Assembly: GCA_964648855.1 (NCBI GenBank)
Contig: CAZYLT010000002.1
Span: forward strand, 90,001 to 122,000
Direction of reading: 5' to 3'
Length of the DNA: 32,000 nt
Source of the DNA: an uncultured archaeon
Lineage (GTDB): Archaea > Asgardarchaeota > Thorarchaeia > Thorarchaeales > Thorarchaeaceae
Shown here: positions 1-12,030 of the stretch, in pieces
Layout: each line of letters starts with the position of its first letter
Numbering within the stretch: the stretch's first letter is position 1
Notes under the pieces: generated by a model
What the model saw: only the letters and a program-made list of their open reading frames with translations
The model's database searches: none
What the model was told of the DNA's origin: nothing
Program-made: the position numbers and the translations under genes

Positions 1-594
1 CTTAGACCATCTTCCAACAATATTCCCAAAATCCATCCCCGCAAGAATCAATTTGGATGGTTCGTAATGTGTTGCAAGATAACAAGCCCTATCCCCATCT
101 GTGAACCCTCCCCACAAGAATACATTAGGTAGCGGTTCAACTTGCGTGCTACCAAGAACCGTTTTCAGTATCGGCACACATTTCTCAACAGCAGGTATAT
201 TATCTCCGTGGGCATGTACTACCGAAACTGCTCCCTTATTGGTTGCCGTTGCAATATCATCCAAATCTCCATCGAGATCGGTGACAATAATATCCGCTTG
301 AACACCTTCATCCAGTAGAGCAGTTGTAGCCCCATCCGCTGCAATGAAAGCTAATCTATCAAATGGCACTTGTTCTGCAATTCTTTCCAGATGACTCTCT
401 AGCGAAGGGCCTGCTCCACAGACTATCACGATTCTTCCTTTGATTAACATTCTCAATTTTCCCAATAATGGTTTGGAATTTTGTCCTGCCAAAATTGAAC
501 TAAGAATCTGTGTTGCTTTCCTGTCATCTTCAGGATTAAGGCCAAGCTCGGATACAATCTCATTGTATAATGGTTGCCATTCTGACCATTTCAT
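1..594 (-). CDS. mptE: 6-hydroxymethyl-7,8-dihydropterin pyrophosphokinase MptE (DUF115 family), 3' end runs off the window
   Basis: Not in the ORF track; translated by hand from ATG at 594: MKWSEWQPLYNEIVSELGLNPEDD...VCGAGPSLE...FIAADGAT...IIVTDLDGD...VVHAHGDN...GGFTDGDRA...LAGMDFG. These are MptE motifs. A GGTGA SD lies upstream, and the gene is directly downstream of folP. Confidence 0.9.
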   Translation of the reverse strand, partial: MKWSEWQPLYNEIVSELGLNPEDDRKATQILSSILAGQNSKPLLGKLRMLIKGRIVIVCGAGPSLESHLERIAEQVPFDRLAFIAADGATTALLDEGVQADIIVTDLDGDLDDIATATNKGAVSVVHAHGDNIPAVEKCVPILKTVLGSTQVEPLPNVFLWGGFTDGDRACYLATHYEPSKLILAGMDFGNIVGRWSK

Positions 595-631
595 TGAATC
601 ACCTTCTGAGAATTCGTTCACTACCTACGAT

Positions 632-1483
632 TCATCCGCCTCTTCTTAGTTTCTCTCCAATTCTACATGCCACAACCGTTTCCTTCACATCATGAGTCCG
701 TACGATGTCAGCTCCATTTGCTGCTGCTATGCTAGTCACGGCGATGCTGCCCTCTAATCTTTCACTAGGGTTCTCCTGATTAAGCAAATAGCCGATGAAC
801 GCCTTGCGGGACACTCCAATTAGTATTGGCTGACCAAGGGATTTGAACATCTCAAGTTCTCGGATTATTTCATAATCTACGTCCGGGGATTTTCCAAACC
901 CTATCCCAGGATCTACTATTATCTTACTTTGCTCTATATCTGCTATATTGGCGATATGAAGACTCCTCTTCAATGCCTGTAGTGATTGCTCAACTGATTT
1001 ACATGTACTTGCGCATGATGACATTACCACGACAGGGATGTTTCTTTGTGAGACCACCTCTGCCATATTTTCGTCTCCTTGAAGACCAGAAACATCGTTT
1101 ATCATAGAGGCTCCAAGTTCTATGGCGCGCTCAGCCACTTGAGAAGATGCTGTATCAACAGAAATAGGCACCTCTATTGAGTCAGTAAGTACCTCCAATG
1201 CATATTCGATTCTCTCCATTTCAAGCTCCGTTGACACCCGTTCGGTATCATAGTAAGCTGTTGGTGCCGTAGAAACCCCACCAACATCTATGATACTCGA
1301 CCCCTCATCTATCATTTGCCTAGCTTTCGCAACTATTTGGTCACCTTGGACTTCTACGGATTCGGCATAGAATGACTCGGGTGATGTATTTAGAACACCC
1401 ATTACGCGCACTGGAAAAACTTCACCTATGCCAAGTGTGTCCACGTATACAGTATTCTTGTGCAAAGACAACAACTCCAACAA
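632..1483 (-). CDS. folP: dihydropteroate synthase
   Basis: Motifs MGVLNTSPESF, IIDVGGVST, ISVDT, INDVSG, DPGIGFGK, GVSRKAFIG and VRTHDV. The true start may be a few codons downstream (TTG after GGAG). Confidence 0.95.
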   Translation of the reverse strand: MLELLSLHKNTVYVDTLGIGEVFPVRVMGVLNTSPESFYAESVEVQGDQIVAKARQMIDEGSSIIDVGGVSTAPTAYYDTERVSTELEMERIEYALEVLTDSIEVPISVDTASSQVAERAIELGASMINDVSGLQGDENMAEVVSQRNIPVVVMSSCASTCKSVEQSLQALKRSLHIANIADIEQSKIIVDPGIGFGKSPDVDYEIIRELEMFKSLGQPILIGVSRKAFIGYLLNQENPSERLEGSIAVTSIAAANGADIVRTHDVKETVVACRIGEKLRRGG

Positions 1484-3383: not shown

Positions 3384-6143
3384 ATGTCCAAATTCAATAG
3401 ATATAAGCGGTCCGCGGGTCGTTTCCTCAGAAAAATTTTCCGAAGGCCAAAGGCGGAAATTAATCGTGGGTCCGTAATGATAATGGTAGCATTATCAATC
3501 ATTTTCATATCTGCACTCACTCTAAGACTGGAGCCATTAATCAATGCTCAGCCTGTTGTACGAGCTTTTGACCCATGGTTTCAACTACGGGTAACAGAGT
3601 ATGTGACGGAGAATGGTTATGCCGCATATTTCTCATGGTATGATTATACAACATGGGTACCTTTTGGACGTGACATGACGCAAACTAGCTATATTGGTGT
3701 GCCATTCACCACTGCCTTCTTCTATTGGGTAGTAAATCTATTAGGAATCGAAGTATCAGTAACGTATGTTGCGTTGATTGTTCCTGCATTCATGGGTGCA
3801 TTAACTACTATTGTTGCATTTTTCCTTGGACGAGAACTATACAATAACACTGTTGGCATGCTAAATTCCTTATTCATGGCCTTCATGCCAGCCTTCATCC
3901 AGAGAACAGTAGTTGGATTCTTCGACAACGAAAGCATAGGAATCTTTGCTATTGTGCTCACTATGTACCTCTTTATTCGCAGCATTCGACGTGAATCAAG
4001 TTTATCCGGGGTTGCTGCGGGTTTGTCCCTAGGCTACCTACTTGCGTCATGGGGCGCTGCAGATTTCATGTTGGGTCTCTTTGCTCTCTACGGCTTTACT
4101 ATGCTCATAATAGGAAGATACAGCAAGCGGTTACTCACAACTTTTCTACTAACGCTGACTCTGGGTATGTTCATCGGTTGTCTTGTACCACGAAATGGTT
4201 TCGAGAGCCTCACATCGTTCACATACCTTGCACCAATAGGTGTGGGGGTGCTCCTTACAGGTTACGAAATCTGGCAAAGAATAGGCTCACTTCGCGAAGC
4301 TACTGCAATAAAAATTGCACCCCACTTGAAGTCAATTCTGGTTGGAATTATCACCCCAATTGCAGGGATGATTGCTTATGTGATGTATTCAAGTGGATTA
4401 GACCTCTCGATTGTTACCACAGCATCTAATCCCTTTACAGTGATTGGAAACAAATTCCTTAGTGTAATTAACCCATTTTTCCGTCTTGATCAGCGGATAT
4501 TCGCATCTGTGGCTGAGCACTTACCAAGTCCATGGGGAAGCTTCTATCAGACATTACTGATACTGATATTCTTCTTGCCTTTGGGAATGTATTTCTTATT
4601 CAGAAGAGGCAGGGACGAGGACTATCTGCTTCTCCTGTTTGGCATCACTGCCGTGTACTTTGCAGGAAGTATGATTCGGCTTAGTTTGATTCTTGCACCC
4701 GCAGCTGCAATCCTAGCAAGTATAGCAGTCAATGGAATTTTGAGTCCATTCGCTAAGGTTGTAACTCAGGACTCGGTCTTTGAGCGAAGAAGATTCAGAA
4801 TGAGTTCATCTCTGACATCCGAGCATGCCATTGCTGCATTCGGTTTTGTTGGTTTACTCCTGTCTGTGAATCTGATTATGGGGGTTTCTTATGTGACAAA
4901 CTCGGTGAGCAACCCCGAATTTGCGCCTTCTCAAATCACGTCCGACCAGCAGTTTGGTGATTGGCAGACGTCCATGAACTATATCAGGAACGTTCTACCT
5001 GATGATGCAGTTATTGCCAGTTGGTGGGATTACGGCTATTGGATAAATGGTGCAGGCGAGGGACAAACGATTGTTGATAATGCCACTTGGAATCGTACGC
5101 AAATCGCCTTGATGGGGTACGCATTGATGGCGTTGAATTTCACAGAGTCACTGAAGACGTTCAAGCTCTGGAATACAACACATGTATTGGTCTATTGGGG
5201 TCACACCAGTTCTGGTGTTGGCGGCGATGAGGGTAAATGGCCATGGATGGTAAGAATTGCCGAGGATCGTTTTGGCAGTTCAGTCATAGATGATGCAACC
5301 TATCTTGGCGATAATCCTGCGACCGACCAAGAGGAGTCAGAATACACCCAGGATGCATTCTTCCAGTCCACTTTGTACAAACTGATGATGTATAACGAGC
5401 CCACATCATTAGAGTCTGGACAACAGCGTGGGTTGACTAATGAGCGGTTGGGATGGGATAGGCAATACATCGAAAATCCGGATAAGCGCTGGGTAAATAA
5501 TATTCCACAGACTCTCCACGGTGCTTTCAAAGAGGCCTTCATCAGCTATGCATATGGATTTGTCAAGATTTACGAGATTGACTACACAATGCTTGAACAG
5601 TACAATAACCGTACTAGTTCAGACTGGCGACTGGAGAAAGACTCGCTCTCTCAAGTATCAATTGACGGCAGCCTATCTCCACAAGAAGAGGACTTCCAGA
5701 GTTTCGATACTGTGTTTGGCGGTGGATATGATGCTACTGTCTACACACGTGCAAACTCAACTCATGTCTATTATGGCATCCAAATGGATAACTACACTCT
5801 TGCAGAAGACGCCTTTGGATTGCAAATATCCCCAATTGACAGTACTTCCGTATCAGACATTCGCGCTGTTAACTACCAAGGGAAAGAGTATTTCGATGGA
5901 CATATCGACTACTATGGCGACTGGGTGGCTGATGCTCAAGGGGCAAATGAATCTGAAGCGGCAACTGGCGAAAATGTGATAGAATTTCTACTCCCACTGA
6001 ATTCGGAGGATCCAGATGACATACCTCTCTCGCCTGGTAATAAGTATCAAATACGATTTCTCTTCTGGAACAACATACAAACTGGCGAACCAACTCTCAA
6101 TAGTGACTGGACGGTCTTCTGGGTTCCTGTAGAGCTACACTAA
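3384..6143 (+). CDS. aglB: oligosaccharyltransferase AglB/STT3 with C-terminal extension
   Basis: Multi-TM N-terminal region with FDPWF, GFFDNE and SVAEH. Also WWDYG, DNATWNRTQI and the DK motif DEGKWPWMVRIA. Confidence 0.95.
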   Translation: MSKFNRYKRSAGRFLRKIFRRPKAEINRGSVMIMVALSIIFISALTLRLEPLINAQPVVRAFDPWFQLRVTEYVTENGYAAYFSWYDYTTWVPFGRDMTQTSYIGVPFTTAFFYWVVNLLGIEVSVTYVALIVPAFMGALTTIVAFFLGRELYNNTVGMLNSLFMAFMPAFIQRTVVGFFDNESIGIFAIVLTMYLFIRSIRRESSLSGVAAGLSLGYLLASWGAADFMLGLFALYGFTMLIIGRYSKRLLTTFLLTLTLGMFIGCLVPRNGFESLTSFTYLAPIGVGVLLTGYEIWQRIGSLREATAIKIAPHLKSILVGIITPIAGMIAYVMYSSGLDLSIVTTASNPFTVIGNKFLSVINPFFRLDQRIFASVAEHLPSPWGSFYQTLLILIFFLPLGMYFLFRRGRDEDYLLLLFGITAVYFAGSMIRLSLILAPAAAILASIAVNGILSPFAKVVTQDSVFERRRFRMSSSLTSEHAIAAFGFVGLLLSVNLIMGVSYVTNSVSNPEFAPSQITSDQQFGDWQTSMNYIRNVLPDDAVIASWWDYGYWINGAGEGQTIVDNATWNRTQIALMGYALMALNFTESLKTFKLWNTTHVLVYWGHTSSGVGGDEGKWPWMVRIAEDRFGSSVIDDATYLGDNPATDQEESEYTQDAFFQSTLYKLMMYNEPTSLESGQQRGLTNERLGWDRQYIENPDKRWVNNIPQTLHGAFKEAFISYAYGFVKIYEIDYTMLEQYNNRTSSDWRLEKDSLSQVSIDGSLSPQEEDFQSFDTVFGGGYDATVYTRANSTHVYYGIQMDNYTLAEDAFGLQISPIDSTSVSDIRAVNYQGKEYFDGHIDYYGDWVADAQGANESEAATGENVIEFLLPLNSEDPDDIPLSPGNKYQIRFLFWNNIQTGEPTLNSDWTVFWVPVELH

Positions 6144-10347: not shown

Positions 10348-10365
10348 TTAGAACACGTGTTCTAA
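10348..10365. promoter_or_regulatory. perfect 18-bp palindrome abutting the start codon, candidate operator
   Basis: TTAGAACACGTGTTCTAA; its last base is the A of the ATG at 10365. Confidence 0.45.
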
Positions 10366-10823
10366 TGAAAGATAATCCACGGTCCAAATCTAGGGTAATC
10401 GATTTATGCTTACAAGATCCTTCTATGCATATGCCGGATGAGAATCAGGTAGAAACTGTATGTGGCATTCTGATTGTCGAAAAGGAAACTCAAGAGGACG
10501 CGGTCAACTCTTCTAATGCAATGAAGGATTGTCCACGTTTAATTGCGGTGGGCACGGACCAGAATAGATACTATTGTGTTTTCATCGTACCAACAGATAA
10601 GACCTGGTGGCTTGAGATACCCGAGGCAAAGCCAGAGCTTCTTCGCGCTAAAACCGTCAAGATGTATATTACCGAACAGCTTGTCTATCCTGAGGAGTAT
10701 GAGTTGAGATTGCCCGCAGAGATATCAGAAATATCGCCCTGTGGATCCAATTGTTCAACATGTCCCATGATTGAAGAGAACGATTGTCCTGGTTGCCCAG
10801 CTACAATTCACTATAAAGCATGA
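10365..10823 (+). CDS. hypothetical protein with C-terminal Cys cluster (PCGSNCSTC...CPGCP), resembles the C-terminal part of archaeal Lrp/AsnC-type regulators without an HTH
   Basis: 152-aa ORF with a CxxxCxxC-x7-CxxC motif (metal or Fe-S binding). The Lrp-like assignment is from recall of family patterns only. Confidence 0.6.
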   Translation: MKDNPRSKSRVIDLCLQDPSMHMPDENQVETVCGILIVEKETQEDAVNSSNAMKDCPRLIAVGTDQNRYYCVFIVPTDKTWWLEIPEAKPELLRAKTVKMYITEQLVYPEEYELRLPAEISEISPCGSNCSTCPMIEENDCPGCPATIHYKA

Positions 10824-10937
10824 ATCTACGTAAGCAAAGCAACTCCAATATATATGAACTGAGAATCATAACATTGGTATGTTATCTACAAGGAGGATAA
10901 TGTCGTAGTCAATATTGTGGGAAGCTCAGATTATTCC

Positions 10938-10953
10938 GAAACCTCTATAACCT
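10938..10953 (+). promoter_or_regulatory. BRE/TATA-like promoter of the tRNA gene
   Basis: GAAACCTCTATAACCT lies about 30 nt upstream of tRNA position 1 (10980). Confidence 0.5.
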
Positions 10954-10979
10954 AAAGCCGCAAAGAACCGAACACTCGT

Positions 10980-11115
10980 GGGCCAGTGGCTCAGACAGGT
11001 AGAGCGACAGTACATTCAGAACTTCTCTGATGTGTTGATGCTCTTAACTTGTTGGTCGTGGGAAAACGATTCATTTCGAAGCGTTTCACGAATTCAAATC
11101 CCACCTGGCCCGCCA
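10980..11115 (+). tRNA. tRNA-Lys(CTT) with two introns (11011-11039 at 30/31; 11063-11092 at 53/54), CCA encoded
   Basis: Removing both introns gives a 77-nt cloverleaf: GGGCCAG TG GCTC AGACAGGTA GAGC G ACAGG CT CTT AA CTTGT TGGTC GTGGG TTCAAAT CCCAC CTGGCCC G CCA. Both junctions form bulge-helix-bulge-type motifs, and the discriminator is G73. Confidence 0.93.
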
Positions 11116-11244
11116 ATCTTGTTTCAAAGATGCATCATCCATTTCATCCCTTAATGGACTTCCACCTGATTCATGGTCCTACATGTTGAGAAGGTCTTTA
11201 TCTTCGACTCAATCGAATCTGCCCTGCAAAGACGATGACACCAA

Positions 11245-12030
11245 TTGTTGATTATCCTTAAAACAGGAATTGTACTATCTACACTGGTGTTGCTCTTGAA
11301 GATTCGGGCGTGGTTAAGAAAAGGATCACGGTACAGAAGCTTGTTTATGGGTCTATGCATAATTGTGCTTATTACAGTCCCAGTACTAGTCTTCTTCTGG
11401 TATACGGAGAGCTCAAACCTATCATGGGACATAGAAATTGGCGATGAGTTCACATATGAGGTATCATATCTATCGTTTGACAACGTGGACACCCATCAAT
11501 GGGAAACAAATCCTCTTGGCCATGAACACTGGCGTATACCTGACAATGTTACAATCCTTGTGAAGATCAGTTCTCTACCTGACATTCCAGTTTTCCTCAC
11601 GTCTGATAGCTTTGTGAATGAGATAGTCAAGTTTCAGAAGGTAGAAGTCATGCTCACAAACGGGTCGTCGCTTCCTGATAACACAGGAGTCGAGGTGACA
11701 GACTCGATATCCAGCCTGTTTCTGCCAATTGGTGGCTGGGGCCTATTGGATCTATTCTATCTCGACTCTGGACTATCAGAGCATAACCTCGTAGAGGGTC
11801 AGGAGTATCATTCAAAGATAATATCGTCAGATGTCTTTCTCTTTGAGTTCCTCCATTATGTGTCATTCGCTTCTCCAGGAAAAGCCCATCCCGGGGGGAC
11901 TGGCGGTGGATGGCGAGGGAACATCTCAATGTTGACTGGCGTGCCCGGTCAGATACTGGTCCTTAATGCTGCTCCTAATTATTTCGGGCAAATCCGCATC
12001 AATGCCATGAACCTGACCAGAGTAAACTGA
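11245..12030 (+). CDS. hypothetical membrane-anchored protein (two N-terminal TM segments plus extracellular domain)
   Basis: 261-aa ORF with hydrophobic N-terminal helices and several N-x-S/T sequons (NLS, NVT, NGS, NIS, NLT). No recognised catalytic motif. Confidence 0.65.
   Translation: MLIILKTGIVLSTLVLLLKIRAWLRKGSRYRSLFMGLCIIVLITVPVLVFFWYTESSNLSWDIEIGDEFTYEVSYLSFDNVDTHQWETNPLGHEHWRIPDNVTILVKISSLPDIPVFLTSDSFVNEIVKFQKVEVMLTNGSSLPDNTGVEVTDSISSLFLPIGGWGLLDLFYLDSGLSEHNLVEGQEYHSKIISSDVFLFEFLHYVSFASPGKAHPGGTGGGWRGNISMLTGVPGQILVLNAAPNYFGQIRINAMNLTRVN

Follow-up and report, generated by a model that had tools for sequence, protein, structure and literature searches.

A Thorarchaeota tRNA-Lys(CUU) gene predicted to be spliced from three exons at two non-canonical BHB introns

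Introduction

The tRNA sets of four Asgard lineages, including Thorarchaeota SMTZ1-83, have been predicted, and Asgard EndA has been described as an (alpha-beta)2 enzyme with an L1 loop (Kaneta et al. 2018, PMC5829648). In SMTZ1-83, multi-intron and non-canonical tRNA genes were predicted via tRNAscan-SE plus SPLITS, and a conserved loop lysine (K44 in Aeropyrum pernix) was described as giving EndA its broad substrate range (Kaneta et al. 2018, PMC5829648). That study gives class proportions per genome only and notes that its tRNA sets are incomplete; the Lys(CUU) gene, its intron sites and their distribution are not described there. Introns have since been found in 92-95% of the tRNA genes of Atabeyarchaeia and Freyarchaeia, where they are often non-canonical and multiple (Valentin-Alvarado et al. 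2024, PMC11291895), and a preprint of October 2026 covering 90 Asgard genomes reported repeated gains, enrichment of BHB motifs at insert boundaries and systematic under-calling by tRNAscan-SE (10.64898/2026.10.13.758758). Multi-intron, non-canonical tRNA genes are also classic for Thermoproteales (review PMC4090602).

The 2024 study and the preprint focus on Atabeyarchaeia, Freyarchaeia and Jordiarchaeia, whereas the genome investigated here (G000) belongs to Thorarchaeota, a group that is absent from the main text of the preprint and would be counted there with "other Asgard families", for which it gives 0.91 inserts per gene. In this study, we analysed a stretch of 32,000 nucleotides (G000:C2:90001-122000), referred to as the window, for which a sequence-only reading had proposed an interrupted lysine tRNA gene. 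Judged from the sequence and its comparison with relatives, positions 10980-11115 (+) of the window very probably represent the single functional tRNA-Lys(CUU) gene of a Thorarchaeota archaeon whose two BHB introns are removed by splicing. Since multi-intron tRNAs of Asgard archaea have already been published, the gene is a well-supported Thorarchaeota case and not a new kind of thing.

Results

Three exons and two non-canonical introns make up the gene

The lysine tRNA gene occupies 136 nt of the window. Exon 1 (10980-11010, +) encodes the 5' strand of the acceptor stem, the D-arm and anticodon-stem bases 27-30 (Sprinzl 1-30 plus 17a). Exon 2 (11040-11062, +) encodes G31, the anticodon loop with the CUU anticodon (11043-11045, +), the 3' strand of the anticodon stem, the variable loop and the 5' strand of the T-stem (Sprinzl 31-53), and exon 3 (11093-11115, +) encodes the T-loop, the 3' strands of the T-stem and acceptor stem, discriminator G73 and CCA (11113-11115, +). 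Of 26 G000 tRNA genes that were checked, 25 encode CCA. Intron 1 (11011-11039, +; 29 nt) lies at site 30/31 with a strict hBHBh' motif and was assigned by the BHB test, homologues and covariation, while intron 2 (11063-11092, +; 30 nt) lies at site 53/54 with a relaxed HBh' motif and was assigned by the BHB test and same-site inserts in the class.

We then excised the introns in silico and submitted the products to ARAGORN. The results showed that removal of both introns yielded a perfect 77-nt tRNA-Lys(ctt) cloverleaf, while removal of either one singly yielded no tRNA call, so the three-exon structure proposed earlier and its need for both excisions were confirmed. In a structure-anchored scan, the spliced tRNA formed all 21 of 21 stem pairs, and it contained U8, G18G19, U33, T54-Psi55-C56, the G53-C61 pair, G73 and CCA, with CUU in a 7-nt loop. 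The D-loop has 9 nt, including one extra base (17a), and the variable loop has 5 nt; hence the Sprinzl sites are 30/31 and 53/54, and the numbering of these non-canonical sites in the sequence-only reading was correct. Introns at both sites have precedent in Crenarchaeota, and published lists of the two sites were not found in our literature search. The predicted spliced junctions are ACAG|GCUCUUAA for intron 1 and GUGGG|UUCAAAU for intron 2. A split or permuted tRNA gene was ruled out, as the three exons are collinear within 136 nt.

Direct reading of the upstream sequence identified a TATA-like box with a CTCTATAACC core at 10944-10951 (+), approximately 30-36 nt 5' of the mature tRNA start. 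A/T-rich boxes resembling it were present at equal distance 5' of other tRNA genes of the genome, and 10944-10951 may represent the archaeal promoter of the tRNA-Lys(CUU) gene.

The unspliced locus was not recognised by the usual tools. No tRNA was called there by ARAGORN in default mode on the window or in intron mode on the whole genome, by Rfam at the gathering threshold in the window, or by an Rfam scan of 10900-11200 with an E-value threshold, in agreement with the earlier expectation that usual annotation may overlook the gene. The sole Rfam match at the locus was an antisense sR12 (box C/D) with E=4.2, which we treated as chance.

Both introns carry BHB motifs at the predicted cut sites

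BHB motifs were scored at homology-defined boundaries as a 4-bp helix between two 3-nt bulges, with cutting after the second bulge base. For intron 1, the central helix CGAC/GUUG was paired at 4 of 4 positions (11005-11008/11034-11037) and was flanked by the 3-nt bulges AG|U (11009-11011) and AU|G (11038-11040), by a 4-bp outer helix AGAG/CUCU (11001-11004/11041-11044) and by an inner hairpin (11012-11015/11030-11033 and 11017-11020/11026-11029; inner helix run of 5) with its loop at 11021-11025. For intron 2, the central helix CGUG/CACG was also paired at 4 of 4 positions (11057-11060/11087-11090), with the 3-nt bulges GG|A (11061-11063) and AA|U (11091-11093), a 5-bp inner helix AAACG/CGUUU (11064-11068/11082-11086) extended by 11070-11072/11078-11080, and the pentaloop AUUUC (11073-11077). 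The BHB test at the exact boundaries found no outer helix for intron 2, which places it in the relaxed HBh' class. The splice boundaries were unique, any slide altering the spliced product (n_equiv 1 for each intron). A motif of such quality at a fixed site and length occurred at approximately 1.7e-4 of random genome positions and is present twice here. The strict and relaxed geometries read earlier at the two cut sites were thus borne out.

The exonic strands of these motifs are taken from the arms of the mature tRNA. The intron 1 motif (BHB-1) draws on 11001-11005, which comprise A21 and the 3' strand of the D-stem, and on 11041-11044 (bases 32-35), while the intron 2 motif (BHB-2) draws on C48 and T-stem bases 49-51. 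Because BHB-1 and BHB-2 pair with D-stem and T-stem bases, the D- and T-arms would be unfolded during intron cutting; the earlier statement that the precursor must open both arms can be read directly from the sequence.

Many introns of this genome and of the orthologous genes, in various tRNAs and at various sites, follow a common plan of approximately 30 nt, in which a stem of some 9 bp is capped by the pentaloop A-N-U-Y-C (ACUUC, AUUUC, AUUCC, AGUCC), without wider sequence identity.

Orthologous genes carry the inserts as presence/absence polymorphisms

We compared 30 related loci with the mature sequence in alignments that left long gaps free and checked the spliced products by ARAGORN. 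The results showed that these Lys(CUU) genes contained 0 to 3 inserts, and removal of the inserts gave Lys(ctt) every time. The orthologue inserts were approximately 30 nt long with identical boundaries, and in a search of the locus against relatives, matches spanned exon 1, intron 1 and exon 2 and broke off precisely where intron 2 is predicted to begin. Inserts were absent from G015, G020 and G003. Several genomes carried the 30/31 insert only, many carried 30/31 and 56/57, G002 and G011 carried 37/38 and 53/54, and G063 carried 30/31 and 53/54, as in G000. Three inserts (30/31, 43/44 and 56/57) were present in G001, G007 and G022, of which G001 belongs to the same genus as G000. Alignment to the mature tRNA also revealed a gene with four inserts in G017 (L047, G017:C119:7000-8666, about 250-640, minus strand); these inserts of approximately 30 nt each follow mature positions 19, 31, 43 and 54 and include both G000 sites.

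The glyA neighbour of tRNA-Lys(CUU) was conserved in seven of the relatives checked, including intron-less G015. This conserved neighbour indicates that the genes are positional orthologues whose inserts, with their exact boundaries, are polymorphic for presence and absence. In the class as a whole, 30 of 87 genomes and 8 of 17 genera had the insert at 30/31, 16 of the 87 genomes had an uninterrupted 30/31 junction, and 10 of the 87 genomes, from 4 genera, had the insert at 53/54. The intron-1 region showed a mean column identity of approximately 92% among 19 aligned orthologues from six genera (exon flanks included), and the T-arm introns of these genes were almost completely diverged or replaced. 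Since the same-genus relative G001 (L006, G001:C30) has another set of inserts, the introns of the T-arm and variable region are gained and lost even between members of one genus, whereas the one at 30/31 is stable.

Covariation supports the BHB structures, and folding energies leave a caveat on intron 1

An alignment of the intron-1 region of the 19 orthologues was used to assess covariation. The BHB-1 structure was 93% paired across these orthologues, compared with only 20-50% for slid controls, four hairpin pairs of intron 1 had changed on both sides, and the covariation score was reached by 0 of 500 shuffles. The BHB-1 central helix was invariant except in G001, where a U->C change converts a G-U pair into G-C with the BHB register kept; the same change produces an A-C mismatch in a competing shifted register. 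At the T-arm site, the 53/54 hairpins of G002, G030 and G063 had unrelated or diverged sequences and were always paired. Moreover, in genus g5 an exon change U50->C was met by an intron change A->G in the BHB-2 central helix (U50-A to C50-G). Homologous introns have therefore kept structure over sequence, as expected of BHB introns.

We then folded the precursor with RNAfold (naked RNA, 37 C). The minimum free energy was -54.0 kcal/mol, with a shifted continuous helix at intron 1, and the best fold with both BHBs enforced reached -42.6 kcal/mol, approximately 11 kcal/mol above the minimum. This model, which also misfolds the mature tRNA, gave central-helix pair probabilities of 0.0 (intron 1) and 0.17 (intron 2), and RNAalifold on the 19 orthologues likewise chose the shifted register for intron 1. 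The second bulge of intron 1 (11038-11039) reads AU|G here, where the remaining 18 orthologues of the alignment have AA|G, and its U adds one G-U pair to the competing non-BHB helix favoured by RNAfold. Since RNAfold also fails on the cloverleaf of the mature tRNA, the folding energies carry little weight. The modelled thermodynamic preference for the shifted helix would thus represent a caveat on intron 1 and a minor uncertainty, not a refutation.

These folding results are the main reason to consider a scheme in which the gene is real but EndA does not act on intron 1 unaided. The precursor would then reside mostly in the more stable shifted helix, removal of intron 1 would be slow, ordered or helper-dependent, and the intron would be a kinetic checkpoint instead of a neutral insert. 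The helper could be co-transcriptional folding, a chaperone or prior modification. The energy gap, the zero occupancy of the BHB-1 central helix and the register chosen by RNAalifold are all compatible with such a scheme, as is the conservation of the intron-1 region across six genera while the T-arm introns diverged. However, the nearest-neighbour model misfolds the mature tRNA as well, and the lone informative substitution, the U->C change of G001, favours the BHB register. A helper in the form of a guide RNA also failed to appear above chance: a strict box C/D regular expression returned zero guide candidates pairing with the precursor, and a looser pattern (a 9-mer, then CUGA) returned 44 chance-level matches, the lone one with a box-C-like word upstream having the wrong spacing. 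A guide RNA as the reason for intron 1 conservation was therefore rejected, and we regard the checkpoint scheme as a whole as very improbable.

The assembly contains no other Lys(CUU) copy and encodes a matching splicing machinery

The G000 assembly comprises 3.11 Mb in 62 contigs and is 94.6% complete. The named genomes with the closest EndA were Candidatus Thorarchaeota MAGs, with up to 94% identity, in line with the earlier assignment to a probable Asgard genome. BLAST of the mature sequence against G000 detected no second Lys(CUU) copy or fragment, matching only the three exons of the locus. AAG accounted for 54% of the Lys codons in 716 long open reading frames (ORFs) of the genome. As the sole tRNA gene for the majority Lys codon is unseen by common finders, standard annotation would give an incomplete tRNA set.

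These data also bear on whether the locus could be a decaying or silent pseudogene, in which case tRNA-Lys(UUU), or a further Lys(CUU) gene from the unassembled part of the genome, would decode AAG. The incomplete, fragmented assembly makes a second copy possible, tRNA-Lys(UUU) is present (C2:2646-2752) and might, in principle, decode this codon through wobble, and truncated Lys(CUU) copies exist in the relatives G017 and G080. Nevertheless, the 21 stem pairs, the universal bases and both BHB motifs are all intact, the structure is kept at the glyA-linked locus across genera with compensatory changes, and G000 itself has neither another copy nor a fragment of the gene for its majority Lys codon, so that a pseudogene is very improbable. 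The idea that three tRNA-like fragments merely lie close together by chance, for which one could cite the silence of automatic finders at the locus, is effectively refuted by the perfect cloverleaf after excision, the two BHBs in exact register, the 30 related genes examined and the glyA synteny in seven of the relatives checked.

We next consider the enzymes that a functional tRNA-Lys(CUU) gene with two such introns would depend on. The genome encodes two EndA paralogues. The alpha subunit (L001:1474-2037:-, 187 aa) matched the A. pernix catalytic subunit 3P1Z_B with E=2.9e-49, retained the Tyr-His-Lys triad, and aligned to 3P1Z_B gap-free across the L1/CSL loop, with K42 (IRKPK) on K44 (VEKPR). 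The second paralogue (L002:1174-1809:+, 211 aa) has Val at the catalytic His position, which fits a role as structural beta subunit, as predicted from its sequence. RtcB and archease genes were also present. A heterotetrameric EndA with a broad substrate range is predicted for this genome; the earlier claim that a broad-specificity endonuclease is required agrees with this typing, which points to a crenarchaeal-type alpha subunit with the loop lysine and a His-less partner.

Non-canonical introns are common among the tRNA genes of the genome

The other tRNA genes were surveyed with a BHB-aware, CCA-anchored scanner that parses the cloverleaf with jumps over BHB candidates. It recovered 35 tRNA genes in G000, with Lys-CUU among the perfect scorers; because it misses genes that do not encode CCA or whose BHBs are weak, this census is a lower bound. 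At least 14 other genes contained non-canonical BHB introns, including Ala-GGC, four Arg genes, Glu-CUC, Gly-CCC, Leu-GAG, Lys-UUU, Thr-UGU and Val-CAC, and three genes contained two introns, namely Lys-CUU, Ser-UGA (C2:49060-49210) and Val-GAC (C11:6841-6978). Of 26 tRNA introns in the genome, 17 were 29-33 nt long. This survey had been proposed together with the original reading, and its outcome indicates that Lys(CUU) is typical of the genome and that the splicing machinery is in constant use.

Examples of intron-bearing loci lie at C10:47179-47286, C10:47651-47760, C4:18987-19096, C4:65885-65994 and C11:35454-35560. ARAGORN in intron mode mislabelled several intron-bearing genes as SeC, Pyl or Arg-ACG, or assigned them "introns" of 722-2255 nt. 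The T-loop of the tRNA-Lys(UUU) gene (G000:C2:2646-2752, +) is interrupted by an intron of 30 nt that follows mature position 60 (about 59/60), and ARAGORN miscalls this gene as an intron-less 78-nt gene at 2645-2722. Genes for Trp, Leu-CAA, Ser-GCU and Ser-CGA were found in G000 neither by ARAGORN in intron mode nor by the scanner; they may be more heavily interrupted.

BLAST of intron 1 and intron 2 detected no paralogue of either in G000, the best matches being chance-level words of 12-14 nt. A transposed intron family of the Thermoproteales type was also rejected for the two introns, as no near-identical copies of them were found in G000. Elsewhere in the genome, the word AATGGGGTCAT is common to the introns of two tRNA genes, tRNA-Leu(UAA) and one tRNA-Met (G000:C4:19216-19334 and C4:24703-24836).

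Truncated Lys(CUU) copies occur in two relatives

It had also been suggested that the T-arm intron could disrupt an attachment site for mobile elements. This found no support in G000, where there is no partial tRNA duplicate and no integrase among the five flanking ORFs scanned against Pfam: one encodes SHMT (glyA), one is of the NMO family, and three had no Pfam match (window 10365-10823, +; 11245-12030, +; 11151-11492, -).

Truncated 5' Lys(CUU) copies consisting of exon 1, intron 1 and exon 2 were observed in G017 and G080, repeated on one strand. They lie on L046 (G017:C216) at 218-300, 1925-2001 and 4608-4663, on L048 (G017:C149) and on L045 (G080:C244). Several end exactly at G53, the 53/54 site, and share a common upstream flank, ...CACCGCTGCGT. 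On a 4.7-kb G017 contig, the copies flank TPR, flavodoxin and beta-helix genes, and no integrase match was obtained among four ORFs scanned on that contig. A 3' Lys(CUU) piece, from approximately position 32 to CCA, is present in L047 at about 1400-1667. Attachment-site remnants, cassette borders and split-gene pieces are candidates for the origin of the truncated copies.

Discussion

Our analysis supports the following route to a functional tRNA-Lys(CUU). A precursor of approximately 136 nt would be transcribed, and exon-intron pairing would form two independent BHB motifs. A heterotetramer-type EndA, composed of a catalytic alpha and a non-catalytic beta-like subunit, would then cut each 3-nt bulge between its second and third bases, and RtcB with archease would join the three exons, after which the tRNA would refold to the cloverleaf. 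The cutting and joining themselves, and which intron leaves first, are inferred.

The contrast between the stable 30/31 intron and the changing T-arm introns admits a more far-reaching, unlikely reading, in which the 30/31 intron is ancient, constrained in sequence and of use to the precursor, and the T-arm introns track a conflict with genetic elements carrying copies of tRNA-Lys bases 1-53. Its role may be, for example, to keep the D-arm and the anticodon loop locked in a non-native helix before a given step of maturation has taken place. The restless T-arm introns in question are those at 53/54, 56/57 and 58/59, and the idea of a conflict with elements, which draws on the G017 and G080 copies ending at G53, may explain them.

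What the Thorarchaeota case adds is a set of exact intron boundaries backed by intron-less positional orthologues and covariation, together with fast intron turnover, as seen from the different set in a relative of the same genus. The sequence-only reading had further attached to the gene a bearing on the origin of eukaryotic tRNA splicing; this link is a general one that the literature has discussed before, and existing knowledge of that origin and of the splicing mechanism is unchanged by the Lys(CUU) gene.

Comparison with described systems places the gene among known forms. In Thermoproteales, tRNA genes are interrupted at non-canonical sites that include the anticodon stem and the T-arm, similar to the situation here. 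Up to three introns per gene, both hBHBh' and HBh' motifs, and splicing that depends on an (alpha-beta)2 EndA with a CSL are described for them (Sugahara 2008; Fujishima 2010; as cited in PMC4090602 and PMC5829648), and the CSL lysine is present in our genome. Many Thermoproteales introns belong to sequence families common to different tRNA genes, which is read as transposition (Fujishima 2010), whereas the two introns studied here have no paralogues in G000. The relaxed motif of intron 2 resembles that of the Methanopyrus kandleri pre-tRNA-Glu(UUC), an HBh' intron that also has no exon-side outer helix (Kaneta et al. 2018, PMC5829648); in contrast, M. kandleri EndA is without the L1 loop and cuts HBh' introns poorly (PMC5829648), while the EndA of G000 has both loop and lysine.

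The closest resemblance is to other Asgard archaea. Their published multi-intron tRNAs, like those of G000, have short, protein-spliced introns, many of them at non-canonical D-arm, anticodon-stem and T-arm sites, with BHB boundaries, and share with it repeated gain and loss between relatives, a portion missed by standard annotators and an EndA of two paralogues. Intron length differs, clustering at 29-33 nt in G000 compared with a median of 22-23 nt in the Asgard preprint (10.64898/2026.10.13.758758). Thorarchaeota SMTZ1-83 belongs to the same phylum as G000 and has the same EndA architecture, with the L1 loop lysine, which enables cutting of relaxed BHB motifs, present in both.
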